Shown: positions 4,883 through 33,800 of the stretch, one piece after another
Numbering within the stretch: the first letter of the stretch is position 1
Layout of the letters: every line of letters begins with the position of its first letter
IMG/VR virus record: IMGVR_UViG_3300032303_001999
Span: 1 to 55,956 of that record
DNA length: 55,956 nt
Origin: a virus
Taxonomy: Duplodnaviria; Caudoviricetes
Reading direction: 5' to 3' (one strand)
Translations under genes and position numbers: made by a program
Notes under the pieces: generated by a model
Told to the model about the DNA's origin: nothing
The model's input: the letters and a program-made list of their open reading frames with translations, nothing else
Database searches by the model: none

Positions 4883-5380
4883 ATGGAATCCACATCCGAT
4901 AAAGTTGCTAAATTGGTGGCTCAATCTGAGATTGCAAACATACAGGAGCAGATTTGGTCACAGCACAAAACGATTATGTTCCTTGAAGAGCGGGTCATTG
5001 CATTTGAGCGACTCGTGCAGGGATACACAAGCGTCACAAAGGACTTGGCCAAAGAGATTAAGTTTGCGGTAGCCGAACACAACAAGGTCGCCTTAGTTCG
5101 GCGAAGCAAGTGTGGCCGATATGGGCGCCGAGAAGGCGAAGTAGCAAAGCGATGGGCTGAATGGAAGGCTTTGGAGGAAAGCGGCAAAACAATCTACCAG
5201 ATTGCAGAGATTTGGAAGGTTGACCATTCAACTGTGGCTTACGCGAAGAAAAAGGGCTACTCGAACGCAAAAAGCTTGTTACCAGCCAGCCTAATTGGAC
5301 ACGAGATCGTTTCGCTTCCACCTACTCGCAAGGGTCATCGAAAGCACAGGAACAGGATGCAACTGAGGTTGGCGGCGTGA
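4883..5380 (+). CDS. Coiled-coil plus HTH DNA-binding protein
   Basis: SGKTIYQIAEIWKVDHSTVAYA helix-turn-helix; AGGAGA SD. Confidence 0.7.
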   Translation: MESTSDKVAKLVAQSEIANIQEQIWSQHKTIMFLEERVIAFERLVQGYTSVTKDLAKEIKFAVAEHNKVALVRRSKCGRYGRREGEVAKRWAEWKALEESGKTIYQIAEIWKVDHSTVAYAKKKGYSNAKSLLPASLIGHEIVSLPPTRKGHRKHRNRMQLRLAA

Positions 5381-5583
5381 AGGCAGACGATAAGGCAATC
5401 AAGGCCATTTCTAGCCTTAAGGAGTCAAACGCTACCTACCTTGTGCTTGTCGAGTTCCAAGAAAGCCCAGATGTGTTTGTGGACAGCCGTGGCGACCAGA
5501 CCAAGGGACAGCGAAGCAAGTTCATGCAAGCCCTGTACCACCATTGGTCTGGGCAACCCAAGAAGGAGGAAGACGATGAATAG
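5377..5583 (+). CDS. Hypothetical protein
   Basis: GTGA overlap with upstream gene. Confidence 0.55.
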   Translation: MKADDKAIKAISSLKESNATYLVLVEFQESPDVFVDSRGDQTKGQRSKFMQALYHHWSGQPKKEEDDE

Positions 5584-5848
5584 GCCTCAAAAAACCAAGC
5601 CCGAACAAGTCGTTGGATCCGCACGGAAGCAGACGAACTTCTGGCAGAACGTGGTCGCCCTGTACGCTTTTCGGTATGGGGCGATGGAGATTACCGAGGA
5701 GTGTGCTTTCGAAGTGCTAAAAAGCACTGAGCAAGCCGTCGTGGATCTGGATAGGACAGGGGAGAACCTTGTGGTGGCCCTTCGGGGTAACAAGCGGAGC
5801 GTTTTGCAGAAACTGAAAGCGTGCTGGCAGACATGGAATTCAAACTAA
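5576..5848 (+). CDS. Hypothetical protein
   Basis: GGAGG SD before ATG 5576; operon packing. Confidence 0.55.
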   Translation: MNRPQKTKPEQVVGSARKQTNFWQNVVALYAFRYGAMEITEECAFEVLKSTEQAVVDLDRTGENLVVALRGNKRSVLQKLKACWQTWNSN

Positions 5849-6231
5849 ACATCGAACCGAAGTCTATTCAGTCTGGCCTTCGCTTTTCGGGCAAGGGCGG
5901 GAGACCCCGTGTTTTCCGCAACCTTTCCAGTAAGGCTTATGTGCGGGAGCTGATATTTGCATCAAAGCAGTACGCCAAGGAGCAGATCCAAGGCCCATTG
6001 CGTTGCGATGTTACTTTTGTGCTAAAGCGCCCACAGAGGCTTAAGGCGAGTGGCCGTCAGCCAGCTCCAGTCAGGCCAGACCGCGATAACCTATTAAAAC
6101 CGCTCCAGGATGCCCTTACACAGGCGATGTTCTGGGTGGACGATAGCCAGATCGTTGCTGGCGAAACCCTTAAACTATATGCGGGCAAGACTGAAAAGCC
6201 CTGCATTGAGGTGAAGATTACAAAGCTATGA
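5833..6231 (+). CDS. rusA: RusA-family Holliday junction resolvase
   Basis: RPDRDNLLKPLQDAL...DDSQIV signature. Confidence 0.9.
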   Translation: MEFKLNIEPKSIQSGLRFSGKGGRPRVFRNLSSKAYVRELIFASKQYAKEQIQGPLRCDVTFVLKRPQRLKASGRQPAPVRPDRDNLLKPLQDALTQAMFWVDDSQIVAGETLKLYAGKTEKPCIEVKITKL

Positions 6232-11676: not shown

Positions 11677-11885
11677 CGGTAGTAGTTGTCGTCCTTTTGA
11701 GGCTCAAAGCGATCATCGTATCCGTCGTCTCGATCCTCGAAATCCCACGGCGTTCGTGTGCCAGGACGCTTGCTCCACAGCCAACGAGAAAAAGATGATC
11801 TTTCTTGTTCGGGTTTTCTTTCAACCCACAGCTCAATTACCCTTTTAACTAATTGGGCTATTATCATTTTAGCCAATCTCGGCAT
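11673..11885 (-). CDS. Hypothetical protein
   Basis: 70-aa ORF with ATGA overlap to phosphoesterase. Confidence 0.5.
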   Translation of the reverse strand: MPRLAKMIIAQLVKRVIELWVERKPEQERSSFSRWLWSKRPGTRTPWDFEDRDDGYDDRFEPQKDDNYYR

Positions 11886-12358
11886 AGGAGTGTCCTCATC
11901 GACCTTTTTCGGCGGTATACGCCGTCACCCCCGCCAGCACCCCGATCCCCAGCAGAGTTGGTATTGCCCTCAATTGTAGTAGCAAAGCCATTTTCAGTTT
12001 TCTCGATGATCCCTGTATGGGCTACACGACCAAGGGAACTAAAGTAGATCCCAAAGACAGAAGCAGGGGGCGAGTATTCGACCCGCTTGCCTCCAACCAC
12101 CCAAGAAGGACTCCATCCTGTTTGAGGTACTAGGTTCCCATACCCAGCCTCACGGAACACATAGTAGTTAAACGCAGCACACCAAGGATTTCCTGGTTCA
12201 AGGTTAACCGAGGAAAGCATGACATCGACCTCTGGCCCTGTGTTAACTCCCCATTCTTTTACGCCAATTTGCTTTCTGGCTTGGAATAAAACGCACCCTC
12301 GGTCATCCGACTGGCAAAAGGGGGCGGTTAAAAGTATTAACGCCAGCCAAGTAGGCAT
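11864..12358 (-). CDS. CHAP-domain endolysin with N-terminal signal/hydrophobic segment
   Basis: PWCAAF, AHTGII, TIEGNT motifs; likely start MPTWLALILLTAPF. Confidence 0.85.
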   Translation of the reverse strand: MPTWLALILLTAPFCQSDDRGCVLFQARKQIGVKEWGVNTGPEVDVMLSSVNLEPGNPWCAAFNYYVFREAGYGNLVPQTGWSPSWVVGGKRVEYSPPASVFGIYFSSLGRVAHTGIIEKTENGFATTIEGNTNSAGDRGAGGGDGVYRRKRSMRTLLCRDWLK

Positions 12359-12684
12359 ACCACGGCTCCTATAAAAAGGACGCACCATAGGCAAAGCACA
12401 ATGACAAGTCGGGCGGTTCTGGTTGTAGATCTCCAGTCCTGTAGCCAGCTCAAGGTATCGATATACTCGTTGATTGAAGGCCACTCCATTTGTACTACAA
12501 ACCACGCCAGCCACACAGCCAATAGGTAGGCAGAAGCCCCAAGGATTAGGCCATGCAGGGATCCTCGGTCATACGTCCCAGCCGATGGGTCAAACTGCTG
12601 GATCAGCGGGGCGGCCGACCAGAACACTATGATGGCTATGCAAAATGAACCAAGACCTTGGAACTTGGAGAGGAACTTCTTCAC
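12337..12684 (-). CDS. Putative holin (multi-TM)
   Basis: Three hydrophobic helices; between lipoprotein and endolysin. Confidence 0.6.
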   Translation of the reverse strand: MKKFLSKFQGLGSFCIAIIVFWSAAPLIQQFDPSAGTYDRGSLHGLILGASAYLLAVWLAWFVVQMEWPSINEYIDTLSWLQDWRSTTRTARLVIVLCLWCVLFIGAVVCLLGWR

Positions 12685-13070
12685 CAAGGGATCCCCACAA
12701 ACTTCCTAGCCACAAACATAATACCCCCAAATATGAATCCTCTAAACATCCATATCCCTAAAGCGATAAGCGCACCTCGATAGATCCAAAGCTCTTTTAA
12801 GGCTTTTCGCTGTTTGGACTTCCATACACCAGCGTCCTTAATTGCCTCGTTCTTGTCTTTGACGGCCTCGTCCAAGTCAATAGAGGTCTGCTTGCAGGCC
12901 TGTACGGCACTTTCTAATTGGGCTTTAGCTACGACTAGGTGTTTCTTGGCCTCTGGGTTGGCTACAGCAATTGCATCGTCGATGCGTGCCGCGGCAACGG
13001 AAAAATCTGCCGAATGCCTGACAGTCGAGCATCCGCACAGCAGCAATGCCAATGCAATTAACAATCGCAT
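12681..13070 (-). CDS. Putative unimolecular-type spanin (lipoprotein, coiled coil, C-terminal TM)
   Basis: Lipobox LLCGC; helical middle; C-terminal hydrophobic segment. Confidence 0.6.
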   Translation of the reverse strand: MRLLIALALLLCGCSTVRHSADFSVAAARIDDAIAVANPEAKKHLVVAKAQLESAVQACKQTSIDLDEAVKDKNEAIKDAGVWKSKQRKALKELWIYRGALIALGIWMFRGFIFGGIMFVARKFVGIPW

Positions 13071-13918
13071 GGGGTTCCTGAATATTTAGGGGTACTGATC
13101 TGACCTTGGCCTCCCCAAGTACCTTCTTCTTCGTTAAAAGTCCAAGATCCACGATCATTTGCCTCTAGGTGCTGTTCCGTCTGTCTAGAATTTTTTTTCT
13201 CTGACAACGTCCTTGCCCCAATGGAAACGCCTATTTCGGTTCCAGATTCGCTCTTTGTGCCTGTTTCGGTTCCAGCTCCGCTCTTTGTACCTGTTTCGGT
13301 TCCAGCTCCGCTCTTTGTGCCTGTTTCGGTTCCAGATCCGCTCTTTGTATCTACCTCTGTCCCAGATCCTCTCTTTGTATCTAACTCTGCTCCAGCTCCG
13401 CTCCTTGCGTCCAATTCCGATCCAGAGCCATTCTTATTTTCCATATCAGACCCTACGCCTTGCGTAGATTCAGCATCAGACCCAGTGCCCTTCCTCGACT
13501 CCGCTTCGCCTCCTGTGCCCCGCGTGCTTTCTGTGCCAACACCATTGGCTGTCCTTGTGTCTAACTCCTTTGCGTTTGCCTTTGCTGACGAGTTATCGAT
13601 GACCCTAGAGCTAGATGATTCGTAAACTTTTTCATTTGCTGATGACGTCTGACCTTCCAAGGATCTATTGGCATTCTTACCAATGCCAGTCGTAAATTCA
13701 AAATCATTGCGGTCCTCAATAGAATTACTTTGCCTTGATAAAGCTTGATAAGCCGAAGTTACCAAAATCTCATAATCAATCTTTTCGGGCAAGTCCACCA
13801 TTACGCCAAGAAGTGGATTGGCTTGAGTTGCGTTCCTAGAGTTGGCTATTCCTCGCCTTACCTCAAACAATGAATCACGGATAAATGTATCGAGATCAGA
13901 AAGATCAACGATGGTCAT
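13058..13918 (-). CDS. Trypco2-like N-half protein with 10-aa repeats (paralog of 14859..15674)
   Basis: LDTFIRDSLFEVRRGIA...NP..GVMVDLPEKIDYEI; repeats SGAGTETGTK. Confidence 0.75.
   Translation of the reverse strand: MTIVDLSDLDTFIRDSLFEVRRGIANSRNATQANPLLGVMVDLPEKIDYEILVTSAYQALSRQSNSIEDRNDFEFTTGIGKNANRSLEGQTSSANEKVYESSSSRVIDNSSAKANAKELDTRTANGVGTESTRGTGGEAESRKGTGSDAESTQGVGSDMENKNGSGSELDARSGAGAELDTKRGSGTEVDTKSGSGTETGTKSGAGTETGTKSGAGTETGTKSESGTEIGVSIGARTLSEKKNSRQTEQHLEANDRGSWTFNEEEGTWGGQGQISTPKYSGTPCDC
13228..13400. repeat. 30-nt coding tandem repeat
   Basis: Unit about CCTGTTTCGGTTCCAGCTCCGCTCTTTGTG, around 5-6 degenerate copies. Confidence 0.9.
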
Positions 13919-14166
13919 CTGTTTCTCCAGTTTATCGCCGCTTCAACAGCAAACCCAACCAGCGACCCAACTGCTGATGCGGTTAAAATAAAAAACTTCT
14001 TGAAGCTCTCTAGCGACGAAACCCTGTTGGCCAGATCTCCGAATGTTGAGTAACTCTTTTCCATGACATCCTTCATCTGGGAAATATCATTGGACATTGC
14101 GATCATTCGCTCTTCGATTCTGGCAATTCTTTCCGAAATAAATTCTCGATGCTCAGAGCGGCTCAT
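13915..14166 (-). CDS. Coiled-coil protein with C-terminal TM (XhlA-like)
   Basis: ERIARIEER...RVSSLE then hydrophobic helix. Confidence 0.65.
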   Translation of the reverse strand: MSRSEHREFISERIARIEERMIAMSNDISQMKDVMEKSYSTFGDLANRVSSLESFKKFFILTASAVGSLVGFAVEAAINWRNR

Positions 14167-14840
14167 TGAACGTCTCCAGGGTACTGAACAACAATTGGCA
14201 CGCTGAACCGAATCACACATCCAACGTCGTCTTTTTGCGTGTCTGTTCGCAATGAGTATCCCGATCGGCTGGTGCTGGAGGATTGCGAAGAGCTAGTGAA
14301 TCCACTTGAGCTCGCCGAAAGGCTATTAGATGCCAGCGTGGATCGGCTGTTGCTCGAGGAATTTGATGAGGAACGACTATTGCTGGACGAGGTTGAGGTA
14401 GATTTGCTTCCGCTCGAAGAATTGGATGTTGAGCGGCTGGCGCTGGAAGAGTTGCTTGTGGAACGACTTACACTTGTCGAGTTGCTCGTTGAGCGGCTCG
14501 CGCTTGAGGAATTACTCGTCGATCGGCTCGCGCTTGAGGAATTACTCGTCGAGCGGCTGGTGCTCGCAGAGTTGCTGGTTGAGCGACTGGTGCTCGAGGA
14601 ATTACTCGTGGAGCGGCTCGAACTAGAAGAGTCGCTATTTGAGCGACTTGAACTGCTTGAGTTTGAGGTCGAGCTACTTGAACTGGTAGAATTGCTTGTC
14701 GATCGGCTTGAGCTGTTTGAGTTTGAGGTCGAACGACTTGTGCTGGAGGAATTGCTTGTCGATGAAGACGAGCTTCCAGAAACGCTTGCCTTATTATTTG
14801 CTATTGAATCGTTTCTTGTGTCGACAAGTTGGTATCCCAT
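14163..14840 (-). CDS. Ser-rich repeat protein with Trypco2-like C-terminal strand
   Basis: AAGGAGA SD; (SRSTSNSSSA)n repeats; ends GCVIRFSVPIVVQYP. Confidence 0.75.
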   Translation of the reverse strand: MGYQLVDTRNDSIANNKASVSGSSSSSTSNSSSTSRSTSNSNSSSRSTSNSTSSSSSTSNSSSSSRSNSDSSSSSRSTSNSSSTSRSTSNSASTSRSTSNSSSASRSTSNSSSASRSTSNSTSVSRSTSNSSSASRSTSNSSSGSKSTSTSSSNSRSSSNSSSNSRSTLASNSLSASSSGFTSSSQSSSTSRSGYSLRTDTQKDDVGCVIRFSVPIVVQYPGDVQ

Positions 14841-14858
14841 AAATTCTCCTTATTCCAG

Positions 14859-15674
14859 TTATCTAGATATAACCCCTGTCTCTGTATCAAATTTGTCGTA
14901 AAGCCTGTTTCCCTTATGATTTTGATCCGTACAGCGATCTTCCTTTTCGTCTGCGGAGGTGCTGTTGTTTTCGGTCTCGGTTCCGCTGTTGGTGTTGGTT
15001 TCGGTCTCGGTTCCGCTGTTGGTGTTAGTGTCTGTCTCAGTCCCACTGGTGGTATTGGTTTCTGTATCTTGCCCGTTCTCCGTTCTGAGCGAGATATCAG
15101 TTCCGCTCATGCGATTCATATCAGTCTCGCCACCGCTCGACCTATTGGACTCCGTATCGCCCCCGCTAGACCTACTAGACTCCACATCAGTCCCCACAGC
15201 TCTGTCGGATTTATTCTCGGTTCCATTGGAACTGTTTCCGTCATTCTCTTGGTCGCTAGAGATGTTTCCCTCATTTGTGAGTTCGCTAGATGCATCTGTT
15301 TCAGATTGTAAGCTATTCTCGGTTGCAACTTCGCTTTCATTGGCCTGACTCGTCTCATACTCGATTCCAGCGCCAATGGACGCATCGGTTTTATTTTCAA
15401 GGCTAACCCTAGACGAACCATCGTATTCGTTTGAAAATGTTGATTGTTTATCTGTGCCGCTGTCACTTGCAGAGCTTGTAGATTCTCTTGTTTTGGATTG
15501 GTAGGACTTAAGCAGGGTCATCTCAAAATCTATTTTCTCTGGAAGGTCTACCATTACCCCTGTGTTGGGGTTGGCTTGTGAGGCGTTCCGAGACAAGGCA
15601 ATCCCCCTACGCACCTTAAAAAGTATGTTTTCGATGACGCTGGCCGATGAGGAGAGTGGTACGACAAGAGCCAT
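14859..15674 (-). CDS. Trypco2-like N-half protein with acidic 10-aa repeats
   Basis: VIENILFKVRRGIA..RNA.QANP.TGVMVDLPEKIDFEM; repeats SGTETETNTN. Confidence 0.75.
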   Translation of the reverse strand: MALVVPLSSSASVIENILFKVRRGIALSRNASQANPNTGVMVDLPEKIDFEMTLLKSYQSKTRESTSSASDSGTDKQSTFSNEYDGSSRVSLENKTDASIGAGIEYETSQANESEVATENSLQSETDASSELTNEGNISSDQENDGNSSNGTENKSDRAVGTDVESSRSSGGDTESNRSSGGETDMNRMSGTDISLRTENGQDTETNTTSGTETDTNTNSGTETETNTNSGTETENNSTSADEKEDRCTDQNHKGNRLYDKFDTETGVISR

Positions 15675-15675
15675 G

Positions 15676-16545
15676 CTAGAACCCCACAGGAGTCATTATC
15701 TTGTTCATCGCACCGCTGATAGGCTCGTGGTACGACTTCAAGAAGGCCAAGGACTCCGACGCCTTCTTTACGACAAGGTTTTTGTCTAGTTCTGGTTTAA
15801 GTAGGGAAGTTGTCGCAAGCTCCCCAGCGATTAGGGGAACTAGGAAAGCCTCGATGTCAGAGCTTGGGGTGTAGATCACAATAGGAATCTGTAGATCTGT
15901 GAGAACTAACTGCTGTGGCTCTAATGAGGCCGAGAAACGAATCGAGGAAGCCTTCGTAGGCAAGGGGATGACTCGAACTAAAGCCCTAGCCCCACCGCCA
16001 ATAGTGTCTCCGAGGTACTCGGCGGTATAATACGCTGGAAGCCCACTCTGCCTGTAGTAAGTGAGGGTGTCTTGACGTACTGGGGCTTCGGAAAGAAAGG
16101 TTAGGCGATGGTCTTCGTCCCAGATTACAGATCCCTCGATGCGACGGATTGGCGCCCACAGGGGGATCGCATCATCATAAAGCATGCCAGTATATGTCCC
16201 AGTAGCCAAAGACCACGGATCGCGAAGGGTAGATCCAATGCCAAGTGGACACTTGCGATCACCAACCTCAAGGGTATCCCCAATCCTGTCAGTATTAGAT
16301 GACAAGGTCAGGCCTGTCACATTCCTAGATCCTTGAGTTAGGCCAACCCTTACGCTTGCAGGGGCAAGCTGGAACGATGTGACAGGGGTTGTCTTACGTC
16401 CAGAAGGAGCTGAAAAATAGTATTTTGCAAACCCAGCATTGATCGCACCAATCAACGTAGCGGCTAGATCGGCTGGTATAGAGATTGGATCGCTCGGAAG
16501 ATTAGTGAATGAAATGACCCTTTGGGCGAGCTGTAATGATGTCAT
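15676..16545 (-). CDS. Putative head-tail adaptor/tail tubular protein
   Basis: N-terminal MT..QL..R helix, GLPAYY and RVIPLP motifs; position after capsid. Confidence 0.55.
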   Translation of the reverse strand: MTSLQLAQRVISFTNLPSDPISIPADLAATLIGAINAGFAKYYFSAPSGRKTTPVTSFQLAPASVRVGLTQGSRNVTGLTLSSNTDRIGDTLEVGDRKCPLGIGSTLRDPWSLATGTYTGMLYDDAIPLWAPIRRIEGSVIWDEDHRLTFLSEAPVRQDTLTYYRQSGLPAYYTAEYLGDTIGGGARALVRVIPLPTKASSIRFSASLEPQQLVLTDLQIPIVIYTPSSDIEAFLVPLIAGELATTSLLKPELDKNLVVKKASESLAFLKSYHEPISGAMNKIMTPVGF

Positions 16546-17219
16546 TTGGCCTCCTCCAGGGTTTTTAATGCCCTGTCATACTCGGCCTTTAGCAAAGGCT
16601 CTCTCTGTTTGCTTTTATCGGCAAAGAACAACGAACTGCTGGATAGATAGCGTGCAATAGGCAACAGCAGGGTCTCTGCGTAGTTGTGGGGCATCGGGAT
16701 AATTGTGGAGGCCGAATAGTCGCTAGTTGTAAAAGCAGGGGCTTTAATTGAAACCTCCACGGAAAGAGCCGTGCTTGTGGTGGGAGAAGGCACAACAAAC
16801 ATCGTGATCTTGGTGGAATCGGCGGCGTCTGGGGATGGCCGTTTCTCGTCGGCAAAATAAGCTTGAGGCGGTGCGCCAGTAAGGGCTGTCAGAGATCCAG
16901 CATAAATTGAGGCAAACGAATCGTACTCGCCCCTTGTGCGGATTGGACGAAGGCCTACGCCGTCAGAAACACGTTTTACAGGGCCGAGAACCGCTTCAAC
17001 CGAGTCATCGAGAGTGACGTTATTTGAGTTGGCTGAAATCGTCGCAGTAATCGTCTGGCGTGTGTAGTAATCCAAGAGCCGATGCCCCTTGGCCCAAATG
17101 AGTTGTAACGCCGAATTAAGGTCGTTGAATATCCGCCTCCGCATGATTTCGGGGGCAGATGCGTTATTAGGGATGCCGAACACTTCATAAATTGCATCTA
17201 TGGCTTGAGTGACGTTCAT
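16542..17219 (-). CDS. Putative head-tail adaptor (T7 gp11/P22 gp4-like)
   Basis: LN.ALQ.IW, GAPPQAY, VPSP, IPMP..YAETLL pattern. Confidence 0.65.
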   Translation of the reverse strand: MNVTQAIDAIYEVFGIPNNASAPEIMRRRIFNDLNSALQLIWAKGHRLLDYYTRQTITATISANSNNVTLDDSVEAVLGPVKRVSDGVGLRPIRTRGEYDSFASIYAGSLTALTGAPPQAYFADEKRPSPDAADSTKITMFVVPSPTTSTALSVEVSIKAPAFTTSDYSASTIIPMPHNYAETLLLPIARYLSSSSLFFADKSKQREPLLKAEYDRALKTLEEAK

Positions 17220-20220: not shown

Positions 20221-20268
20221 AGTGATAGAGGTGATTGCTGGATAGGATCCTTGGCGGATTAGTTGAGC

Positions 20269-20811
20269 ATGAGCAACATGAAGTCACTTGGCCCGCTAGG
20301 TGTTAGTCCAGCTTCTGGGTACGGCCATGTTGTCGGGACATCCTCGAGGTTTTACGGCGAAGGGATGCTGAATCCCAAGTTCTATGCTTGGCACGCCTTT
20401 TTCCAGATTAGGGTCGGCGCGGTTTCGAGTGCGGGAATCCAAAACTACTACGTAGGTCCAAAGCTTGGATTTATATATGGCACAACATGCGCTGTGGAAG
20501 GCCTCGATGAGAAACAGGAAACAAAAGGAGCCATTACTTACGTCTATATTGATGGCGTTGTTACCGATGCAGCTATAACTAGCGCAAAGATAGAGGGTTA
20601 TGAAAGGGTACAACCGCTTTTTGAGCCAGAGGAGGAGTTAGCAAAACAGACTAAGGTAAGGCATTTCCTTGGAATGATTAAAAAAACGAAACCGTTCTTT
20701 AAGTTTGGCCACAATCTTGTTTATCCGATTGTTCAAAGCTCATTTTCAGTGCCAATAGCTATCCCTGCATGTGTTAATGGGTATCGTGGAGTGCTTATTA
20801 CAACAGCATGA
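20269..20811 (+). CDS. Hypothetical (probably structural) protein
   Basis: Beta-rich ORF; first gene of plus-strand module. Confidence 0.65.
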   Translation: MSNMKSLGPLGVSPASGYGHVVGTSSRFYGEGMLNPKFYAWHAFFQIRVGAVSSAGIQNYYVGPKLGFIYGTTCAVEGLDEKQETKGAITYVYIDGVVTDAAITSAKIEGYERVQPLFEPEEELAKQTKVRHFLGMIKKTKPFFKFGHNLVYPIVQSSFSVPIAIPACVNGYRGVLITTA

Positions 20812-23450
20812 AAGGTCGAACAACGTCCTACCAGAGGTTTGGATCTGCCTTAGGAACTACTGGTTCGGTTGTAAATAAATTCATTAGATCCCTAGGTGGT
20901 CCTAAAGGAAGAGACTCAGAAGGTGCTGGTAAGAGTCAAATAGACTCGTCCGAAGGCAAGGGGATATACAACCAAACAATCAAAAGCGAAGAATTGGTGT
21001 TTGATTTTAAGAAGGAGTTTGATTTAGGAGAAGCGGTTTATGGGTGCATATCGGCTTCATTCGGAGAAGGTTCTGGCATGGAAATAGACTCAAATGCGGC
21101 AATTAAAGGAAGAAAAACAAAAAGAAATGATTCCCCGCATTTCAAAGTCATGAAGAGGGAGTGGTATCATGATGTCGAAAAAAAGTCATTTCAAGAATGC
21201 GCTGCAATTCCGCAAGAAAACCTGCCATTGACAGTAAATTCCAAGTTTGAGATGAACTTTTGGGATCAAGATTCCGATGAGCTGACTCAAATTCCAAAAG
21301 GGATTGGGTTTACTTCTGGGGCTTTAATAAGGCCAGTTTCATTTAGTGATAATGCTATGCCTATTAAAGATGGATTTGGTGCATTTATTCCTCTCTCCTC
21401 TTTTTGTAGGGCACATATTTTAAAGGGAGTTCCGCTAGAAACAGCACACGGAATCATAAATCGTTGCAAGGAAATATCTCTTATTGGATCCGCAAGTTAC
21501 TCAATTAGTCGAGCTAACAAAAGATGTGGTGATGGGCCAACTACTAGCACTAAAGAATGGGAGGGCGAATCTGTCCATGGTTGTCCACCAGGAGATTGTA
21601 GGAATGAAGGCGGAAAACTAATCAACAGCTGCTTGTCTGGCAGTTTAAATACCACAATAGAGCTCAATGGTGATATCAAGATGACGGCATATAGGCATAA
21701 ACAAGTAGCAGACATTTGGGAGAAAGATAAACAGAAACAGAAAACTCTTGATATATCTGGAAATGTGTTTATTGGAACACTTGAGGATGCAGCTCTAACA
21801 AAAAAATCTGTTTCGCTTTGCGAAGCAGAGAACGACGACGACTCCGCTATACCAACGCCAAAATTGCCACCTCCAACACTTAAGCAACTCATAAAACTCG
21901 AGAAGCAGAAAATGTTAAGTTCTGGTTGTCTGGTTTACCCAGCCACAAACAACAGCATAATCATAGCCAAAGAAGACACCAACCTTAAAACAGAAGATCT
22001 TGATCTTCAATACTGCAAGCCAGGCACCGCAAAGACTGTCAATATCTTAATGGGTTCTCCGCAAATTAATCAATTATATCTCAGCTCGTATGGAGGTGGC
22101 ATTAATATTGATATTGATGCACCTCTTGTTTATCCAGGTGGCGCGGCATTTCGAATTGGCAAAACGGAAAATGAGTCAGTAAGGCCTTTTTATGTATCTG
22201 GCCCTAGTCTTCAATGTTATTTCGCTGGTATTGGATGGGACTACAGCGAAATAGGAAAAAAAGATCCAGAAGCTTTGTATAACGAACCAAAATGTACGGA
22301 AACGGAAAATAATTTCTATGATTGGAAGATGACATGGAGAAGCACTAACCTAAAAAAAACGGTTACTGGACTTTGTCCGCAGGGGTTCGAGGATGTTGGC
22401 GTTTACGATGCAAAGCCAAATTCGTGCGAATGTGATGACGACTGCAAAGATTGCGCGGTAGAATATGGGAAACTCCGCATGAGTTGCGAGTGTCAGCCAA
22501 TTTGTAAGCCTGACCCTGATGCTAAACTCAACCCATGCGCAGATGGTCACAAAAACAAAATAAAAACAGACGAAGGCTATGCTTGCGACGGAGTATACAG
22601 CATAGGGTTCTCAGTAGGCAAATATGTTGGCGTGCAACGCGAAGATGCAGCTGAACAACAAATCTATAATGTTGCGCCAGTTCCGCTGAGGACTTCTTCA
22701 AGGTACGACAAAACAGAGGATCTTGTTTTATGGTGGAGCGCATATGTAAGCGAAAGACTGCCCTACGAATTCTACAAGCAAACATCTAGTGATCTTGAAC
22801 TAAGGCTTTATGCAAATAAAGAATCTGCAGATTATGATATGAAAGCGTTCAAAGAAAATAGTTTTTATAGATATGAACTTATAAAAGCTGGTTCGCTAAA
22901 ACTTTTGTGCGATGAATGGTCTACTTCTACGGATATTTGGGTAATCCATCAGATACGTAAAGAAACTTCATGTTCGCCATCTCCAGCTGGAGCTGCGCGT
23001 AATTATGAAACGAGAACAAAAATTGGAGTTCCTTATTCAGAATGCAACGATTGTGGCGGCCCTCCTATTGATTTTTGCTGTTCTGAAAATGGTTGCGGTG
23101 GAGGCTTGGAAAAAGAATGCTGTGAGGAAGATCTGTGCGGTAAGTCGACAAACCCATGCGAATGGGCGGCTGAAATCAGTGGAGGGAAGGGGGCGTGCTA
23201 TCCCAACACGTTTTATGATTGCGGCGGGGATTGTGTCGAAGATCCAGGCGATTGTGGATGCTGTGGTTGTAATGACGGCAATGATGACTGCGAACCATGC
23301 AAAGCATATAAAGCATGCAAACCCTACCGTCTAATTTCGGATTTTGAGCCGCTGTCATGTTATGGTGATGCTTACAAGGAAGATAGGCATCAGACCTCAG
23401 TAAATCTTACAATTGAATTTATTTTATTTGAGGACGATGAAAAGGAGTAA
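20808..23450 (+). CDS. Large Cys-rich hypothetical protein
   Basis: 880 aa; dense CxxC/CC clusters, especially C-terminal. Confidence 0.8.
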   Translation: MKGRTTSYQRFGSALGTTGSVVNKFIRSLGGPKGRDSEGAGKSQIDSSEGKGIYNQTIKSEELVFDFKKEFDLGEAVYGCISASFGEGSGMEIDSNAAIKGRKTKRNDSPHFKVMKREWYHDVEKKSFQECAAIPQENLPLTVNSKFEMNFWDQDSDELTQIPKGIGFTSGALIRPVSFSDNAMPIKDGFGAFIPLSSFCRAHILKGVPLETAHGIINRCKEISLIGSASYSISRANKRCGDGPTTSTKEWEGESVHGCPPGDCRNEGGKLINSCLSGSLNTTIELNGDIKMTAYRHKQVADIWEKDKQKQKTLDISGNVFIGTLEDAALTKKSVSLCEAENDDDSAIPTPKLPPPTLKQLIKLEKQKMLSSGCLVYPATNNSIIIAKEDTNLKTEDLDLQYCKPGTAKTVNILMGSPQINQLYLSSYGGGINIDIDAPLVYPGGAAFRIGKTENESVRPFYVSGPSLQCYFAGIGWDYSEIGKKDPEALYNEPKCTETENNFYDWKMTWRSTNLKKTVTGLCPQGFEDVGVYDAKPNSCECDDDCKDCAVEYGKLRMSCECQPICKPDPDAKLNPCADGHKNKIKTDEGYACDGVYSIGFSVGKYVGVQREDAAEQQIYNVAPVPLRTSSRYDKTEDLVLWWSAYVSERLPYEFYKQTSSDLELRLYANKESADYDMKAFKENSFYRYELIKAGSLKLLCDEWSTSTDIWVIHQIRKETSCSPSPAGAARNYETRTKIGVPYSECNDCGGPPIDFCCSENGCGGGLEKECCEEDLCGKSTNPCEWAAEISGGKGACYPNTFYDCGGDCVEDPGDCGCCGCNDGNDDCEPCKAYKACKPYRLISDFEPLSCYGDAYKEDRHQTSVNLTIEFILFEDDEKE

Positions 23451-23452
23451 TA

Positions 23453-24063
23453 TGAATAAAGCAGAATTAACATGGACGGAATCTGGGATAGTTATGACCC
23501 AAGGCTTAATGTGTCTTGAAATAGACAGGCGATTATTCAAAATAGACACAAAATCTCCAGATCAACTGATGCAAGAGCTTTCTCAGACAAGGACTCTTCA
23601 ATACGAAAACTCCAGCCGATCCGTCTATCTGTTTATTGCGCCTATGGCAGAGGATGTTGAGCACTTAAGGCCTTTTGTTAGAAGAGGAATGATCGGGAGG
23701 TGTTACGAGCCAAATGCCTTAACCTATCAGAACATCACTCAAGACTGGGTGTGTGCTGTTGATGGGGACGTTCTTGTATCGCCTCGCCCTGTTTTGGAAC
23801 TGTTCTTCAAAACTCCGTCAATCATTCAGCAAGCAATGTCTCTTGGTTCTGCAATTAAAAAAGCCACTGCAGACGGAACGCTGGCTACAAGGGTAAGACC
23901 AGAAACATTTTCTTTGCGAAAAGAGATCTGCGTGGGCTGCGAGTATTATGATCCTTCGGCCTTTCTTGGTACTGGAAGGTGCAGAGTTTGTGGGTGCGGA
24001 GTTGGCAAGTTGCACATGCCTTCACAGAGCTGCCCCAAGGGTAAGTGGGGTAAGGAAGAATGA
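23453..24063 (+). CDS. Hypothetical protein with C-terminal Cys metal-binding domain
   Basis: AGGAG SD; R..IC..CE...GRC..CGC...K....SCPKGKW. Confidence 0.75.
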
Positions 24064-25448
24064 TCGTTGTAATTCAAATATGGGATGGCGATAAAGAGCT
24101 GTCTCTATCAACGGCCAAGAAGGTCAAGGAATGCTACCCAAATTGCCATCTTGGCATATTGGCAAATAACTGCGTACACCCAAGGGGACTTGAGGACTAC
24201 GCAGACCTAATCCACACGACAGCCGATGATGTTTATCATGATCGTAGCGGTGGTCTAGCCATCCACGAACTGCTTGTGCTTGGGCTTCGCATGTCTGGCA
24301 AAGTCATCATTAAGATTGATCCAAATACAGTTATATCACAACAGGATGGTCTTGAAGAAGATTTAGCTAAAAAAACAGGCGTCATAGGCCAAATAGATAT
24401 GATTAGGCATGGCGAGTTTGTTGTTAAATCGAGCGTTTTTGCGTTATCGAGAAATATTGCAAGAGAGATCGTGGATTCGTGCATTCTTTTGGATTCCGCA
24501 CTTCAAGATAAATCGTCTTGTAGCCAGTCTAGCCAGTCTAGGCTTCGCAGGTATTTTGCCTTGAAGGATGGGCTGTCGTCACATGACTGGCCGATTGCCT
24601 ACGCATCATCAGTCTTGGGGATACCCCATAACTTCTCTGAAAAGCTTTTGAATGCTTTTTATCACAAACCTAGAAAGCAAGTTTCGAGCATGATGTTTAA
24701 GAAAACCGCTAAAGAGAAGGCAAGCGGTATTGTAGTTCCTCCAAGCGCAACCGATCTTCGATCCGAGATTCTTGGTGAGTCGCCAGAACATATTGGGCTA
24801 AATAAAGCCGTGGAGTTCATTTCGATGATCTGGGGGAGCGAGGGGGTCTCGATATCCATGAAGAGTGACCCAGATGGGCGTATGTATATTGGAGATACGA
24901 TTGATTCTGATGGGGTTCTTCATCATTCAGCACCTAAGTTTGATGACATTTCCAAAGCCAAGAAGGTGCTAAAGGATGGGATATTTTCTTTTAAGATTAT
25001 GAATGCAAAACCAGATAATGGAGCTGGGGTTTCAATGCTTGTTTTGGACGTTGACCGCCCAGTCCCAGACGACTGCAAAGCCTCCGTGGTCTCAACCTCG
25101 CATACTCATTCCCAGATCTTCATGCTGATGGATCAAAACATCACACAAAAACAAGCCCTAGAGCTTATCAAAGAAGCCGACTTTGCCGACAAGAGCGGAA
25201 GCAAGGCCACAACCTTACTGGTGGGAGTCCGAGTACCAGGATCTGCGTCTTATGAGGAGGTTTGCCTACACAATACAACTGAGGACAAATGCACCGCCCA
25301 TAAAGTATTGGCCGATGAAAAGGTTCGGCTGGTTAAGTTCGTGGATAAATTCTTTACTTACGACGAGGCTCTGGCCGTGATTCGTGACCTTGCAAAATCC
25401 TATAAAGTGCCGCCTCCTGCGAGGGAACCAGAGCCAGCACTTCCTTAA
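24060..25448 (+). CDS. Glycosyltransferase-like N-terminus fused to RepB-primase-like C-terminus
   Basis: IIKIDPN (degenerate DxD) and HDW in the N-half; LVLDVD, VSTS..HSQ, VRVPGS in the C-half. Confidence 0.45.
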   Translation: MIVVIQIWDGDKELSLSTAKKVKECYPNCHLGILANNCVHPRGLEDYADLIHTTADDVYHDRSGGLAIHELLVLGLRMSGKVIIKIDPNTVISQQDGLEEDLAKKTGVIGQIDMIRHGEFVVKSSVFALSRNIAREIVDSCILLDSALQDKSSCSQSSQSRLRRYFALKDGLSSHDWPIAYASSVLGIPHNFSEKLLNAFYHKPRKQVSSMMFKKTAKEKASGIVVPPSATDLRSEILGESPEHIGLNKAVEFISMIWGSEGVSISMKSDPDGRMYIGDTIDSDGVLHHSAPKFDDISKAKKVLKDGIFSFKIMNAKPDNGAGVSMLVLDVDRPVPDDCKASVVSTSHTHSQIFMLMDQNITQKQALELIKEADFADKSGSKATTLLVGVRVPGSASYEEVCLHNTTEDKCTAHKVLADEKVRLVKFVDKFFTYDEALAVIRDLAKSYKVPPPAREPEPALP

Positions 25449-27879: not shown

Positions 27880-30800
27880 CTACTTTGTCTGCTTTGCGTC
27901 GCTCATCGCATATCTCTGTCTGACAATCTGTTCCTCGTATTTATTGCGGAGCTTGGAGGCTAAATCTTGGATTTTCTTCTTCTTTGCGTCAGTCGGGTTG
28001 GCGATATCGGCTTCGGTGATGTTCACCTCGAACAAGGCCTGTAGCTGGGGCTGGACAATGGAGTTCAGCGTCTCCTGTTCCCGCAGAGTCAGCCTAACTT
28101 TCTTTTTGCTGTAGGGATCTGTGATTTCGGCTCTGGGTGAGTTGAGGATCCAAGTCTTCCCATCCGTTGAGATCTGTTGCCTGTTGTAGGATTCCACGAA
28201 CCGATTGAGCTTAGAGGCTGGCTTTTTCTTGTAGACGGCCACAGGGGAGAGATTCCTAAGTGCGAACTTCGCAACCTTGCCAGCCGTGCTGTTGGGCACG
28301 ACCTCTGTGAACGGCTTAACAACCTTTTTGCCCTCGTAGTCGTAAGCGTATGGAGTCCTGTATCCAGTCGCATTCGGGTATGCTCCCACAAGAGGAGCAA
28401 ACTTTGACAGCATCCTGTCTTTGTTTAACAGGCTTGGCTCTTCGGATTTAGTTCTCGATACATAATCTCTTGAGGCCTCTATAAGACCCCTAGCGGCTGG
28501 AGGGGCTGTAAATACAGATGCAAAATCAATAACAGGGTCAACCACGTTCCAGTCAACGAACAATGTCTTTGCTGTACGGAGTTGTCCTCCGAATGTCTTC
28601 TGGGCAAGGATTCTGCTGAAATCGCCAACAAGGTTTTGAGAAACGGCAATGCCCCCGCCACGATGAACTGCGTCTTTTACTGCTGTTCCTAGTGCAACAC
28701 CAAAGCCCATAGTTGACGCAAACGGCTCAATTCTGCTGATATCGAACTCTTTGTCCCCAATTCGGATCATATAAGATCTGTGGCCATAGCGAGTGGTTCT
28801 CCCAGCTGAATCAGCCTGGGCGGCGGGGCCAGTAATCAACAGGAACTTCTTATCGTCATCCTTGTCTCCTTCCATGCTTCTAAACAGAGCCATCAGAATT
28901 GCTGTTCCGATTGCTCCTTCGGTAAGGCCAGCGACAGAGTTCTCGTAGTTGCTCAGATCCATAAACCTCTGGCCTTCTCTGTTTTTCTTAATGGAATTCA
29001 TTGCTCCGATTGCTGAGTCGGCAAGGCCGATAGGGGTGAAGGCAAGTCCACGAGCCAGCACATTGTAGGAGATTCTGGCGAACAGGGTAAGGCCTCGAAG
29101 AACTTGCAGACCCATTGACCCAGTAAAGGCCACAGGAGCGGTGACAGCCCTTGCTCCATTGTTCGGATCAAATCCCCAGCTTTCAAGGTTTTTGGAAAGA
29201 TCAGAGATGCTCCTGCTTAACTTGTTCAGTGCTCGAGGGGCGGCCTTACCGAGCCTCTTGAAAGTAAATGGCTCGTCTTTGTTGTCGGCTACATCCTCGT
29301 TAAGGGTTTCACGAGAAGACCGCTCAACCGCAATCTTCCACGAATCAGATCCGAATTCGCTGACTTGGTTTCTTACATAGTCGACAATCTCTTGGCCTTT
29401 CAGCCCCTTTGCCTTTGCCATTCTAAATGCAATGGATCCGACAAGAGTTTCTGCGGCAAACGATTTTGCGAACTCGTCAGCGGCCAATAAAGCTCGCAGG
29501 GGCAATCGAACCTTCTTTCCGAGGGGTCCAGGGATCTTGGGATCGTTCTCGTAGAACTTCTGATCGCCTTCGTCCAGCATGGTCGCATCGGTATGATCGA
29601 TATTGTAGTAAGGCTTCTCGGTATTGAATGCCAAGCGGGCGTATCTCGTTCCGTTAATTACGGAAGGCAACATAGCCATAAACCCAAGCTTTGCCTCATC
29701 GGTGGCTCCGTTGACCACGTCAGACAAACTGGCGTATGGATTGCCAATCGTTCCGTCTGGAAGCCTTACATTGAGGCCAGCCTTGCCCATGATGTAAGAC
29801 ATACCCGCCTCGACCATTCTGTAGAATGGGTTTAGAAATGTGAGAGGGGTCTTTGATACGTTGGCAAGCTGGGTTGAGGTGCTGGATACAAGCAGGGCAA
29901 CGTGGGCTTCAAATACTGCATCGCCGATGCTGGCCTGTTTGCCTTGAGACCTACGAACCATCTGCATGGCGACTCCAATGTTGCTTGGCTTTCTCCAGTC
30001 AAACAGAGAGCTTTTGCCGTCCACATTATGCCAATCGGCCTTACCAGAAGTATCGGACTGCCCTGCGTAATCAAATCCCATGGCTGACACAATCTCTGCG
30101 AGAATCTCTTCCTTGGTGAGGGGAGCCTCTTCTTGGTTGGCTTCGATACCCCTAGACCGCAGGGATGCTCCGTTGGCAAATGCGGTCAACTTTGCTTTCA
30201 ACTGGCTTCTTGTGATCCCTTGGGTCGCAAGCTCTCCAGCTACTTGGTCAAACCTCTGTTTTGTGTTTGTCTCAAGTGATTTCATTAACTGCATCACTCT
30301 GGCTGGCTTGATTCCAGCTTGTTTGGCGGCCGCCATCGGAACCATACCAGCCATCACGAGTCGGATCGCCTCGGCGTCATCTTTAGACATCTTGATTGTG
30401 TCCAGCACGTCTTGAGCTGATTTGCTCTCACGGATCTTGAGCTGGGCTGTCTCCCAGTCCATCTGCTCGAGGCTTGTGTTTGCTTTAGCCAGCTCTGCTT
30501 GTAAGGCCTCGATCTTCCTTGCGGATTCCTGTTCCAGGACTTGATATTTGTCCAACTGATCTGCCCATAGTTGATTGGCGTCTTGGAACTCTTTAATCCG
30601 TCCCTCCATATACGCCCCCCATTTCTGCCATTGTTCGTTAGCATTAAAGGCCTCTCCAGCTTGGCTTTTTGCTTTGTCTAGCTCGGCTTGAAGGATAGCA
30701 ATTTGTTCATTGTGACCAGCAATCGTTCTCTTTTTGAGGGTTCTTGAGATGGCGTTCTTGTACAGCTCGTTAGAATCTGGGCTTCTTCTGTAGAGTTCCG

Positions 30801-33800
30801 CATTGAAGAATGACCGATTCCGCTCTTCTGGGGTCATCTGGCTATCCCGCCCAATACGGAACGCACGAGCCAGATTTGTCCTCTGGATATCGTTAGCCAT
30901 TGTTAGAATCGCAATTTCACGAAGCTGCTCTGGTGTCTTTGCTGTCTTTGCATCCTCGGCAAGGGCTAGGTAGACCGCCGCTTGATTCGTTGCCGATGTC
31001 TCGAGAGTTCCTTCAAGGAGATCCTCGTAAAGTTGTGCTTTGTGAGTAGCGACCAAGGCTCTGGCGGCCGCCTCAACGGATGCGTCAGTCTCAACTGTGT
31101 CAGTCGGTCTACGTAGTTCTCTGGCTACTCGTTGCACATCACGGAACTGATCGTTTGCAAATGGGCCAGCACTACGGACATCTTGACCTACATAGGGGGC
31201 GCCGACTTCATAGGGAGCGTTCTCTTCGGATGCCCTTTGGTAGGTGGCGTCAATCTCCTCGTCGGTAATGACGCTTCCAGATGCTCCCAAAAAGGAGGCA
31301 AGCAAGTCGTTCAGCGGAGCTTGTTGTGCTCCATTATTGATTGGTTCTTCCTCTGGCATCGGGGGAAGTCCTCGTGAATAGAGCTTAGTACTTGGATTTT
31401 TACCGCTCTCTTTATACAACAACCTCTTGAGTACTTCTGGATTTTGCTTGAGGTACTCAGCTCGGAGTTTAACTGGACTCAATCCTTTGCCTTGATATTT
31501 TGCCTCAAACGACTCTGGAAGCATTGCGTTTTGCATGAAATCTGTGAAAGCATTTTCTCTTTGTTTCCCATAAAGACCGCCTTTAGGGAGAGCCTCTACT
31601 GCCTTTGCCATTGGGGATTCTCCACTCAAAGCAGATGAAACCTCCATCAGCCCTCGTGAGAACAAGGATAGTTGCTCCATCTTAGGCTTGGGAACTGCTG
31701 ACTCTTGCTCCAAGACCAAGTCCTCTGCTGGGGCGGGGGGCTTTACGCTTTCATCTACTTGCATGAGATCCGATTGGAAGGCAATTCCAGGCCATTTTTC
31801 TTCACGAGCTTTGTTCATCAGCATTGTGTAAAGGGCTTCCTCTTGCGGCGATAGCGACTGGGGAGGAACAGGCCGATAGTAACCATCGTCCTCTTTCTGA
31901 TAGGATCCGTGCTTCTTTTTGTGGAGCTGTAAGAGCTTGGTCTTTAGGACATCAATGTTGTTCCTGTCTTTGTCTTGAATCTTGATTCCACGAGAAAACA
32001 GGGTGGCCTGTTCGAGCTTTTTCTCGACGTTGCCTTGGCGGAGATTCTCAACCATCTTCATAAAGTCGAAGGGCTGGCTGGATAGTTCCAAGGCGGCAGA
32101 TTGCCCTTGGGTCAGAATGGTCGGCTTGATTGCCGAGTTCTGCATCATTGCGTTTCTGGCTTCTTGAGGAAGCTCGGCCGCCAAGGCTTGCATGTACTCT
32201 TTGAGGTTTCCGTTAATCTCAATTCCAGCCTGTCCTGGTATCGAGGCCATCTCAGTTTGGAATCTGCTGTCGCTGTACATTTCGGTGACAAATTCGTGAA
32301 TGTTCCCAAGGCCGTAGTAGATCGAGCGAACCTTCTGCGGGTCAGTCTGGATGTCTGTGACCTTTGTTCGGAACATTGGGGCTGTCGCACGAACCTTGTA
32401 AGATGCGTAGAAGAGGGGTTCTAGGTTTTGCTGGCGAAGTTTCTCAATGCCGCTTGGGGTCAGAACAAGGGTCGTGTTCTGCACTCCATTTGTTTCCATT
32501 CCGCCCAATGCCTCTTCATCCGTCTGGTTCAAAAACACAAAGTCTGGGGATCCCTTGGAGGCCACAAGGCTCATCCCAGAGTTCCGACCCATTGGGCGTG
32601 TTCCTTCCAGCCCTTGATCCTTTAGGTACTTGAGGAGAGGGAAGGTGTTCTCGCTGGTGATTTCGGCCTTCATGTGAATCCCATCCTGACCAATTGGCTC
32701 TTCGTAAGGAGCCATGTGCAGGGTCACGTCATAGGTAGATGCCAATCCAGTCCCGAAAACAGCGTCTGCCACAGGGTTGCCAGCGGTATCCTTAGATACG
32801 TTAACAGCCGCTAAATAGGCCTTAATTAGGGCTTTGAGGGGCTTGTATCCTCCCTTACTTCCGCTTGCCAAGGGCAGGGGATTGCCTTCTGCGTCCATTT
32901 CTATATCTGGGCGGTTTGCGTACTCGACAAGTCTATCCAGCTCCTTCTTGCCTGTGGCCGTACCGATTCCTTCTTTGACTAAAAGGTTGTGAGTCAGAAC
33001 GTGCTTGTATTCGTGAATCGTGGTTTCAATTGGTTCACCGCTGTTTTTGATCCCATTAAGGCTCAATACGACCATTCCGTTACCCTCTTTGGATGGCTTG
33101 TAGTACGACCTTACAAAAGTCGGATCTGGGTTGATTTCGGCTGGGACATATAGCCCAGCGGTCATCATGCTTTGCTTGGTGTTTGGGGTGGTCAGCAGTT
33201 TAGCCAATGCTCTTTGGCTTGGTAGTGCGTCTGGCTCGTTCGCAACGGCTGTAAGGAGATCCCTAAACAAGACGCTATTTCCAGCGTTCTTGTCCAAGTA
33301 GCTCACCAGGCCACGAGAGAACAGGGTCATCTGACCCTTGGTTTCTTCAATAGCCTTAAAGCCTTCCATCGGGCTGGCTTCGGTAGGCTCTTGGTCTTCT
33401 TTTGCCGTGGGAGCGTCGATTCCTAGGAAATTCGCATATTTGGATAGTTGACCCTTGAGGCTCTGGATGTGCTTAAAGACCCACGTTCTGTCTGGGGCGA
33501 CTTCTCCATCGAGGTTGCCCACGTTCCTCGATTTGTAGGCCTCGGGAGTCTCGGAGATCTGCTGATAGCTTGCTCCGCTGACATACATCATAAAAATCTT
33601 CCTGTCGGAATCGGCCAGCGAGGCCATGACCTTTTCGAGCTTGTCGTAGAGTTCTTTGTTGGATTCTGGGGCTTCTTTTAGGGCCATGTAGTCTCCCACG
33701 GACGCTTCTTCCTGTTCGACATCGCCCTCTTCATTGAATGTCCCGCTTATCGGAGCGTCTTTTGATATGGTCTCCCGATTCTTGGCTTCCTCTTGCATCT

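Follow-up and report, generated by a model that had tools for sequence, protein, structure and literature searches.

In the virus record IMGVR_UViG_3300032303_001999 (Duplodnaviria; Caudoviricetes), a linear record of 55,956 bases with an estimated completeness of 87% whose whole length we call the window, three minus-strand genes, named here A (14859..15674), B (14163..14840), and C (13058..13918), encode proteins that each consist of two conserved ends flanking a hypervariable, low-complexity middle segment, the arm. We found that these three genes hold their arms matched to the residue over at least 14 lengths in related phages, that the arms have a period of two residues, and that the genes belong to a tail module. 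On balance, we lean toward the reading that A, B, and C, as late proteins of the tail module, assemble together in register into a long hydrophilic β-ribbon, which would most likely form an external appendage of the tail.

Arm lengths of A, B, and C change in step

Arm length was taken as the distance between conserved anchor motifs and was compared across 43 sequence sources, namely 42 loci (several of them from the same contig) and the window. Both B and C were present in 37 of these sources, which yielded 19 distinct pairs of B and C arms. The C arm was longer than the B arm by exactly 13 residues in 18 of the 19 pairs, with 11 different B-arm lengths obeying this offset (99, 113, 117, 125, 129, 141, 159, 163, 167, 173, and 179 residues). 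The A arm exceeded the B arm by 8 (4/4 distinct pairs), 10 (8/8), or 6 residues (3/3), depending on the sub-clade, and these offsets differ among the sub-clades because small indels adjoin the anchors. In a second group of four loci, clade 2 (L064 to L067), which was reached via a distant relative of the N-terminal head of A and C, A minus B was 25 and C minus B was 22 in 4/4 loci, the A/B/C arms being 156/131/153, 144/119/141 (twice, with different sequences), and 76/51/73 residues long. The fixed offsets imply that every length change has been matched in all three genes, and the arms of the relatives span 51 to 192 residues. An initial annotation of the window, made from its sequence, had named the co-variation of arm lengths in related phages as a check on its proposal that the arms pair; the co-variation held to the exact residue and was far stronger than expected.

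When the lengths of the window's open reading frames (ORFs) within ±10 kb were compared with the B arm in up to 10 loci, only those of A, B, and C tracked it (r = 1.00), and the one other high value (r = 0.93) came from a spurious ORF inside the phosphoesterase gene. The lengths of the adaptor, capsid, and 289-amino-acid (aa) protein genes described below were uncorrelated with the B arm, and the fiber-candidate genes gave r values of -0.27 (880 aa) and -0.07 (462 aa). A fourth co-varying partner was rejected, as none was found within ±10 kb. A head-length ruler was likewise rejected, since arms of 109 and of 169 residues both occur on related contigs of ~64 kb. At the DNA level, the repeats of B form a family of their own, the C repeats have relatives in A only, and no inverted repeats were found between the arms. 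Gene conversion or DNA copying therefore cannot explain how B follows A and C.

Conserved ends flank hypervariable arms

The ORFs, placed as in the initial annotation, encode proteins of 271 (A), 225 (B), and 286 aa (C). A and C had been described there as paralogues sharing a head motif, with B between them as a mirror design in which the arm precedes a C-terminal tail, and both descriptions were borne out by BLASTP (A against C, E = 1e-35, 34% identity) and by the sequences themselves. In A, the head (residues 1 to 66; 15477..15674), which was N-terminal in all 67 relatives found with a hidden Markov model (HMM), is followed by an acidic arm of 187 aa from anchor to anchor (residues 60 to 246; 14937..15497; net charge -29) and a conserved C-end, RCTDQNH...YDKFDTETG. 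B begins with a short conserved N-end, continues with a Ser-rich basic arm of 179 aa (residues 20 to 198; 14247..14783) that has 15 basic residues, 1 acidic residue, and a period of 10, and closes with a conserved hydrophobic C-terminal strand (GCVIRFSVPIVVQYPGDV), its C-terminus reading ...DDVGCVIRFSVPIVVQYPGDVQ / GCVIRFSVPIVVQYPGDVQ. The arm of C comprises 192 aa (residues 59 to 250; 13169..13744) and leads to a conserved C-end of its own. All of these parts are on the minus strand. The initial annotation had recognized the heads and arms of A and C and the arm and tail of B, but it missed the additional conserved C-ends of A and C and the N-end of B. No Pfam or PHROG family was matched by A, B, C, or their isolated ends.

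In an alignment of nine relatives of A, the columns of the head and the C-end were invariant, the latter with the consensus RCT.Q.H...YDKFDTDTG. The corresponding C-end consensus of C is H.EANDR...F.EEEG.WGGQG...PC.C, and B has the N-end consensus MGYQLVD..N.S.ANN.AS and the tail TQKDD.GC.IRFSVPIVVQYPGDV. An AlphaFold2 (AF2) model of the head of A, built from a 58-sequence alignment, had a mean predicted local distance difference test (pLDDT) score of 84.5 and consisted of a strand (residues 3 to 6), a long helix (7 to 34), an extended segment, and a second strand (52 to 55). Foldseek searches with this model found nothing in the PDB and only two matches in BFVD, both with E > 1. Sequence searches of the PDB with the heads found none, and those with the A and B proteins of a distant locus, L063, matched low-complexity chains only. 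A search of the Atlas with the head gave no usable feature match, its structural neighbors being meaningless.

Between the conserved ends, hydrophobic residues are nearly absent. Tandem Repeats Finder detected 30-nucleotide (nt) arrays, corresponding to 10 residues, in all three genes (C, 13229-13407; B, 14428-14763; A, 14963-15062 and 15127-15183), and the rest of the arms is non-repetitive low complexity. The 10-mers once thought to run the full length of the arms do so over most of the B arm, but in A and C clear 10-mers are found only in the head-distal part. Arm sequences differ wholly between phages, being built of TETETNTNSG, GSDTETATMG, GNGQGK, ADADAEAK, or SDSESDSK or else non-repetitive; in the same phages, the adaptor, 289-aa protein, capsid, and phosphoesterase genes are 91 to 97% identical. 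Long plus-strand frames lie antisense to the arms (14239..14901, 13221..13625, and 14959..15348; LEELLVERL..., PVSVPAPLF...) and are by-products of low-complexity coding repeats, not genes.

The arms carry a β-strand signature

All 15 distinct B-arm lengths are odd, with steps that include 4, 8, and 14 residues, so that each change is even, though not a multiple of 3 or 10. Ser occupies every second residue of the B arm in unbroken phase for up to 179 residues, and the fixed-phase positions are 86 to 100% small residues (96% in the window), essentially Ser. The fixed-phase Ser residues of the window's B use 44 AGY and 41 TCN codons; with both codon families in use, it is at the protein level that the alternation is preserved. 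Where they are repetitive, A and C have the same alternation of small and polar residues. The repeat periods also agree within a phage, being 10/10/10 in the window and in L001 and 6/6 in the two genes of L063, with 6 for A and 12/6 for B and C in L014. Judged from the sequences, the period of 2 and the conserved parity fit β-strands. A collagen triple helix was rejected for the arms (no Gly-X-Y, a period of 2, units of 6, 10, or 12 residues, and low odd-lag identity), and an α-helical coiled coil was rejected by the composition and the period of 2.

These patterns bear on an alternative explanation, in which the arms are matched disordered tethers, that is, flexible hydrophilic linkers that are joined only at their conserved ends and for which an equal span selects an equal length. 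Their composition of Ser, Thr, Gly, Asn, Asp, Glu, and Lys, free of hydrophobic residues, is typical of disorder, the confidence of single-chain models is low, and the arm sequences are hypervariable beside neighboring genes that are 86 to 97% identical. However, flexible linkers would not have to agree down to one residue, as 18 of 19 sets in the window's clade and 4 of 4 in clade 2 do. The explanation is also at odds with the one parity of the 15 B-arm lengths, with a Ser phase held over such distances by both codon families, and with repeat periods that are matched between chains. We consider it unlikely.

The orientation of the chains was approached through charge, repeat regularity, and Cys positions. 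In the window's clade, the B arms have 0 to 1 acidic and 6 to 15 basic residues in 15/15 sets, with net charges of 0 to -35 for the A arm and -2 to -31 for the C arm. In clade 2, B is near neutral, the A counterpart is acidic, and the C counterpart is mostly basic. The charge complementarity originally proposed for the arms is seen in the window's clade, where B is basic and A and C are net acidic. The regular, recently expanded repeats are head-distal in A and C and N-proximal in B. The repeat-regularity profile of B, when reversed, correlated with those of A and C (mean r of +0.42 and +0.41, versus -0.38 and -0.10 in the parallel direction), and the reversed comparison was better in 11 of 12 loci for A and likewise for C, counts that are not independent and give no probability because the loci are related. 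Conserved Cys residues mark the C-ends of both A and C, and clade 2 has them near the N-end of B as well, which places the B N-end with the C-ends of A and C. This indirect evidence favors B being antiparallel to A and C.

A proposed model of an in-register β-ribbon

From these observations we infer the geometry of the ribbon, the orientation of its chains, its terminal clamps, and its location on the virion. A and C would run parallel to each other, with B antiparallel and most simply placed between them. One end would consist of the A and C heads, each with a short strand, a long helix, and an extended hydrophobic-alternating segment (GVMVDLPEKIDFEMTLL), completed by the C-terminal strand of B, CVIRFSVPIVV, which is the only hydrophobic element of B; the heads and the B tail would be the sole hydrophobic elements of the assembly. 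The opposite end would bring together the N-terminal strand of B and the C-termini of A and C, which bear Cys and His. Between the two clamps, each chain would form one continuous strand of 51 to 192 residues whose small residues (Ser, Thr, Gly, and Ala) face one way and whose polar or charged residues face the other. With both ends fixed, an insertion in one chain would call for an equal one in each of its partners, and the faces would stay in place with even steps only.

Fully extended, such a ribbon would measure from ~17 nm (51 residues) to ~63 nm (192 residues). The 65 to 70 nm estimated earlier is a fully extended upper limit that applies to the arms of the window only; the arms of the relatives vary from 51 to 192 residues. 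The ribbon would most likely serve as an elongated external appendage attached near the adaptor rings, perhaps as the shaft of a fiber or as a "rope" on which other tail proteins dock, and its length would be free to evolve. An external appendage is favored because length and sequence vary freely among near-identical phages and because fiber genes surround A and B in L063. A fiber shaft or a rope thus seems more likely than a tube.

Several points weigh against the ribbon. The ESMFold Atlas single-chain model of A is poor (pLDDT 0.47), and we know of no solved precedent for an uninterrupted strand of 50 to 190 residues without a hydrophobic core. Gene order is what suggests that A, B, and C are in the virion, no cultured relative having been found. 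A scan of charge registers gave the antiparallel arrangement a slight advantage, but it was periodic and gave no single pairing offset, and the orientation counts come from related loci, as noted above. Slippage between in-phase dipeptide-coding repeats could contribute to the even steps, which would then not reflect selection on parity alone. The sole exception to the constant offset of C and B is found in L028 (379..966), a 3.2-kb metagenome contig whose B is shorter than that of L001 (7040..7657) by one 10-residue repeat; its C and the visible part of its A are as in L001, and the two are otherwise near-identical. This mismatch may be a repeat collapsed in short-read assembly or a tolerated intermediate of stepwise change. 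Finally, the membrane-anchored product of gene H, which sits inside the cluster, is not explained by a fiber. A complex prediction of A, C, and B of L008, the shortest relative, made from 13-row alignments (score 0.27; mark 0.32), weighs neither way.

The cluster lies between adaptor-like genes and a lysis cassette

Directly upstream of A is a minus-strand gene for an adaptor-like protein of 289 aa (15676..16545), preceded by an SU10-type head-to-tail adaptor gene on the same strand (16542..17219; PF24175, E = 3.3e-7, above the curated cut-off). The AF2 model of the 289-aa protein had a mean pLDDT of 65, and its best Foldseek matches in the PDB were connector or adaptor chains of phages, all of them weak (P1 9ums_A, E = 5e-3; N4 9lc0_H; B2 9d83_B; GP4 8jov_2; SU10 7z47_B). 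The length of 289 aa is kept in 10/10 related loci. The PF24175 match and these weak fold matches agree with the earlier statement that the genes come right after the head-tail adaptors. The portal is also of the SU10 type (SU10_portal PF23899, E = 1.6e-25), and the window thus carries both the portal and the adaptor of an SU10-like (Kuravirus-type) podovirus; no homologue of the nozzle or the needle was identified. In SU10 itself, as its description presents the numbering, the adaptor gp11 is followed by the long-tail-fiber proteins gp12 and gp13, with the nozzle, needle, and ejection proteins coming later (PMC9509320).

The genes of the cluster are tightly packed, with an 18-nt gap between A and B and overlaps between B and H, H and C, and C and the next gene. 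Gene H (13915..14166, minus strand) sits between B and C and encodes 83 aa with a coiled coil and a C-terminal membrane helix. An alternative start at the first ATG would give 101 aa (13915..14220), but the ATG of the 83-aa form overlaps the B stop, and this form is the one conserved in relatives (83 to 91 aa). Clade 2 has a small coiled-coil/membrane gene (at about 2884..3141 in L064 to L067) between two adaptor-like genes; BLASTP found no similarity between it and the window's H, and we do not call the two homologues despite their same architecture.

Downstream, the end of C overlaps the first lysis gene, which encodes a spanin-like lipoprotein (12681..13070, minus strand) that combines the lipobox LLCGCS with a C-terminal membrane helix, as unimolecular spanins do. 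Next come genes for a holin-like protein of 116 aa with multiple membrane helices (12337..12687) and for a CHAP endolysin whose N-terminus is hydrophobic (11864..12514; phrog_9589, 1e-13). In 18 loci with B arms of 51 to 173 residues, a set that does not include the window's own copy, the spanin-like protein has a mature length of 113 to 116 aa; the length of the arms is therefore not tied to periplasmic width.

This neighborhood raises the alternative that A, B, H, and C are part of the lysis cassette that follows them, acting late at the host envelope as lysis or envelope-spanning accessories. The overlap of C with the spanin-like gene, the holin-like and endolysin genes beyond it, and weak, sub-threshold matches of H to XhlA (PF10779, E = 0.006) and to a holin family (phrog_689, E = 0.009) are in line with such a role. 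However, neither a signal peptide nor a lipobox nor a membrane segment is visible in the sequences of A, B, and C, such elements being present only in H and the downstream genes, and the constant length of the spanin-like protein contrasts with the varying arms. In L063, the stretch read contains no lysis gene and has A and B between adaptor-like and fiber genes, which assigns the cluster to the tail module and not to lysis, and the clade 2 coiled-coil/membrane gene likewise stands among adaptor-like genes. We regard a lysis role as very improbable.

A split Trypco2-like tube is poorly matched by the sequences

The initial annotation had interpreted the cluster as a Trypco2-like fold that is split over genes and elongated, and as a candidate tail or ejection tube. 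In such an arrangement, A and B, and likewise C (as a second A) and B, would be the two halves of a Pepco/Trypco2-like subunit whose β-hairpin was lengthened to as much as ~190 residues and cut at its turn, and 6 to 12 of these units would ring the tail axis to form a water-soluble hydrophilic barrel of roughly 15 to 50 nm, lined with Ser, Thr, and Gly, that extends the short tail for DNA delivery. If true, it would be a new DNA-delivery tube for a short-tailed phage with an evolutionary link to a bacterial anti-phage pore. The idea has gained from a preprint that describes the Trypco1/2 ("Pepco") proteins, Trypco2 having been named earlier (PMC7159879), as forming stable, heat- and detergent-resistant β-barrels of 9 to 10 subunits with basal amphipathic helices (bioRxiv 10.1101/2025.11.14.688446). 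The preprint makes the tube concrete, but it does not establish homology.

There may be some likeness. Pepco proteins have a small N-terminal amphipathic helix followed by strands, including a hydrophobic-alternating strand and a final strand that ends near a Pro, and the AF2 model of the A head has a long helix (7 to 34) followed by an extended, strand-forming segment. The evidence for an antiparallel B and the small-residue face would suit the lumen of a barrel, and L063 has a pure pair of A and B, as the hairpin model needs. In an hhalign comparison with 15 natural Trypco2 domains from bacterial genomes, a head profile widened to 85 sequences was colinear with Trypco2 positions 2 to 43 (P = 0.015, probability 3%), helix falling on helix and IDFE..V on VELELQV, which we take as a hint, a lead rather than a result.

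However, Trypco2 homology was not upheld by the HMM search of the heads that had been named as its check. The Trypco2 family (PF19631) had no six-frame match in the window at E ≤ 10, and Pfam matched neither whole A, B, or C at E ≤ 1 nor the isolated heads, tails, and ends of the window and of L040 at E ≤ 10; no Trypco2 structure is deposited in the PDB. Against the 15 domains, the heads reached an hhalign probability of only 0.7% and the B tail one of 0.3%. Pepco proteins are protease-activated pore effectors of bacterial defense that oligomerize through their strands into a barrel with a hydrophobic exterior, whereas the phage proteins are split over two or three genes of a tail module, have polar low-complexity strands of 51 to 192 residues without a hydrophobic face, and show no protease neighbor, a Pfam scan of 30 proteins or protein halves from the window having found no protease family. 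An unsplit intermediate was not found among the 67 head relatives. In addition, the B arms vary 3.5-fold (51 to 179 residues), as opposed to the 113 to 116 aa of the spanin-like proteins that cross the same periplasm, which fits poorly with a conduit that must have a given length. We consider the split hairpin decidedly unlikely and the barrel, as specified above, quite improbable too.

Relatives occur in uncultured phages

The same gene order was found on uncultured viral and metagenome contigs. In tblastn searches of cultured phages, A, the capsid protein, the adaptor, and the 287-aa protein of L063 had no match, and the portal had two weak matches only. B had no relative in a set of 185,579 genomes, one per species, which leaves neither a prophage nor a clue to the host. 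Neither an annotated relative nor a solved structure was found.

An HMM of the head, run against 1.84 billion representatives, retrieved the 67 proteins mentioned above, of which ~45 are A- or C-like and ~21 are distant proteins of 98 to 163 aa with a head and a short polar arm. None of the 67 contains the B-tail motif, and thus no unsplit form was seen. The shorter proteins (P0046 to P0067) constitute a wider family with the head MENIVRI...ELPE.V.F...WQ.LE, a short polar arm, and a Tyr-rich tail at the end. The genomic context within this family is known for L063 only (5001..5930), where a B-like partner is next to the A-like gene, which suggests that two-gene short-arm versions occur widely among other uncultured phages. 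No viral contig was reached by scans with P0051 or P0039. A word-index search with the B tail found nothing: its longer setting yielded 2 candidates, neither of which scored, and its near setting yielded none, which reflects a limit of this method for a short stretch, as relatives do exist.

L063 has A and B only, the stretch being without C and H. Its genes are ordered as a GP4 gp80-like fiber gene (PF23140, 7e-34), an adaptor-like gene, the 287-aa homologue, the A-like and B-like genes, and a collagen-like fiber gene. The A-like arm is built of (TSTGTD)n and the B-like arm of (SSSKSG)n, the latter followed by the tail ACRITFSVPI.

Comparison with known elongated assemblies

The closest parallels to the favored fiber shaft or rope come from podovirus tails. 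The "rope" proteins in the chain-like tail fibers of the podophages GP4, VP1, and A1002 are described as extended (~300 Å) and as holding fiber dimers by β-augmentation (PMC13730344). Like the ribbon proposed here, the ropes in that description are extended chains of a podovirus tail encoded near nozzle or adaptor genes, but they are described as single chains, in contrast to three length-matched chains. L063 has a further GP4-type feature in the gp80-like fiber gene just upstream of its cluster; PF23140 was found only there and had no match in the window at E ≤ 1. The SU10 fibers gp12 and gp13, the SU10 needle gp18, and P22 gp26 resemble the cluster in having three chains, an elongated shape, and, as the SU10 description has it, tail-module genes after the adaptor (PMC9509320). 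However, the SU10 and P22 shafts are parallel homotrimers with coiled-coil, β-helix, or β-prism cores, whereas the cluster has three different chains (two in L063), one of them probably antiparallel, with no hydrophobic core and a dipeptide periodicity. Tape-measure proteins provide another parallel, as the length of a segment appears to set a physical length, but they are single α-helical proteins of long-tailed phages. In the cluster, three chains measure each other, no fourth gene co-varies, and the portal and adaptor are of the SU10 type.

Outside phages, the G5-E region of SasG, the central sheet of OspA, silk (GA)n, and the Ser-Asp stalks of staphylococci are extended without a hydrophobic core. 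The strands of SasG run along its rod, silk has its small residues on one face, and Ser-Asp dipeptide repeats give the stalks their length. All of these are single polypeptides, and to our knowledge none of them is made from separate genes with exactly co-varying lengths. A narrow full-text search of the literature found no described case of separate genes that keep low-complexity segments residue-matched.

The matching is direct evolutionary evidence that sequences of "disordered" appearance form a precise, in-register, multichain structure, which would be a hetero-oligomeric β-ribbon that lacks a hydrophobic core and whose length can be tuned freely. Confirmation would make it a new principle in the construction of phage tails, a natural system in which to study how polar β-sheets are stabilized and how several genes change length in step, and a candidate scaffold for the design of rods with a chosen length. 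The length co-variation of neighboring genes can also reveal complexes where homology and structure prediction give nothing.

Other features of the window

A minus-strand ORF of 5,442 aa (27880..44208) lies between the portal gene and a 413-aa gene beside the large terminase. Its first half contains a ddrB-like ParB domain (6.6e-16) and Strawberry-notch-type helicase domains (AAA_34 and Helicase_C_4), and no Pfam match was found in the second 2,742 aa. The product may be a giant packaged or injected protein.

Four plus-strand genes of 182, 880, 216, and 462 aa form an island (20263..25448) inside the minus-strand structural block, with a G+C content of 0.40 to 0.45 versus about 0.50. They had no family matches. 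The 880-aa protein is ~35% identical among relatives whose neighboring genes are >90% identical, and the island genes likely encode exchangeable receptor-binding proteins.

A 478-aa protein encoded on the minus strand (49757..51193) had weak C-terminal matches to PHROG tail proteins (phrog_1197, 7e-9). Its gene is upstream of the terminase and far from the adaptors, indicating that tail genes occur at two places in this genome.

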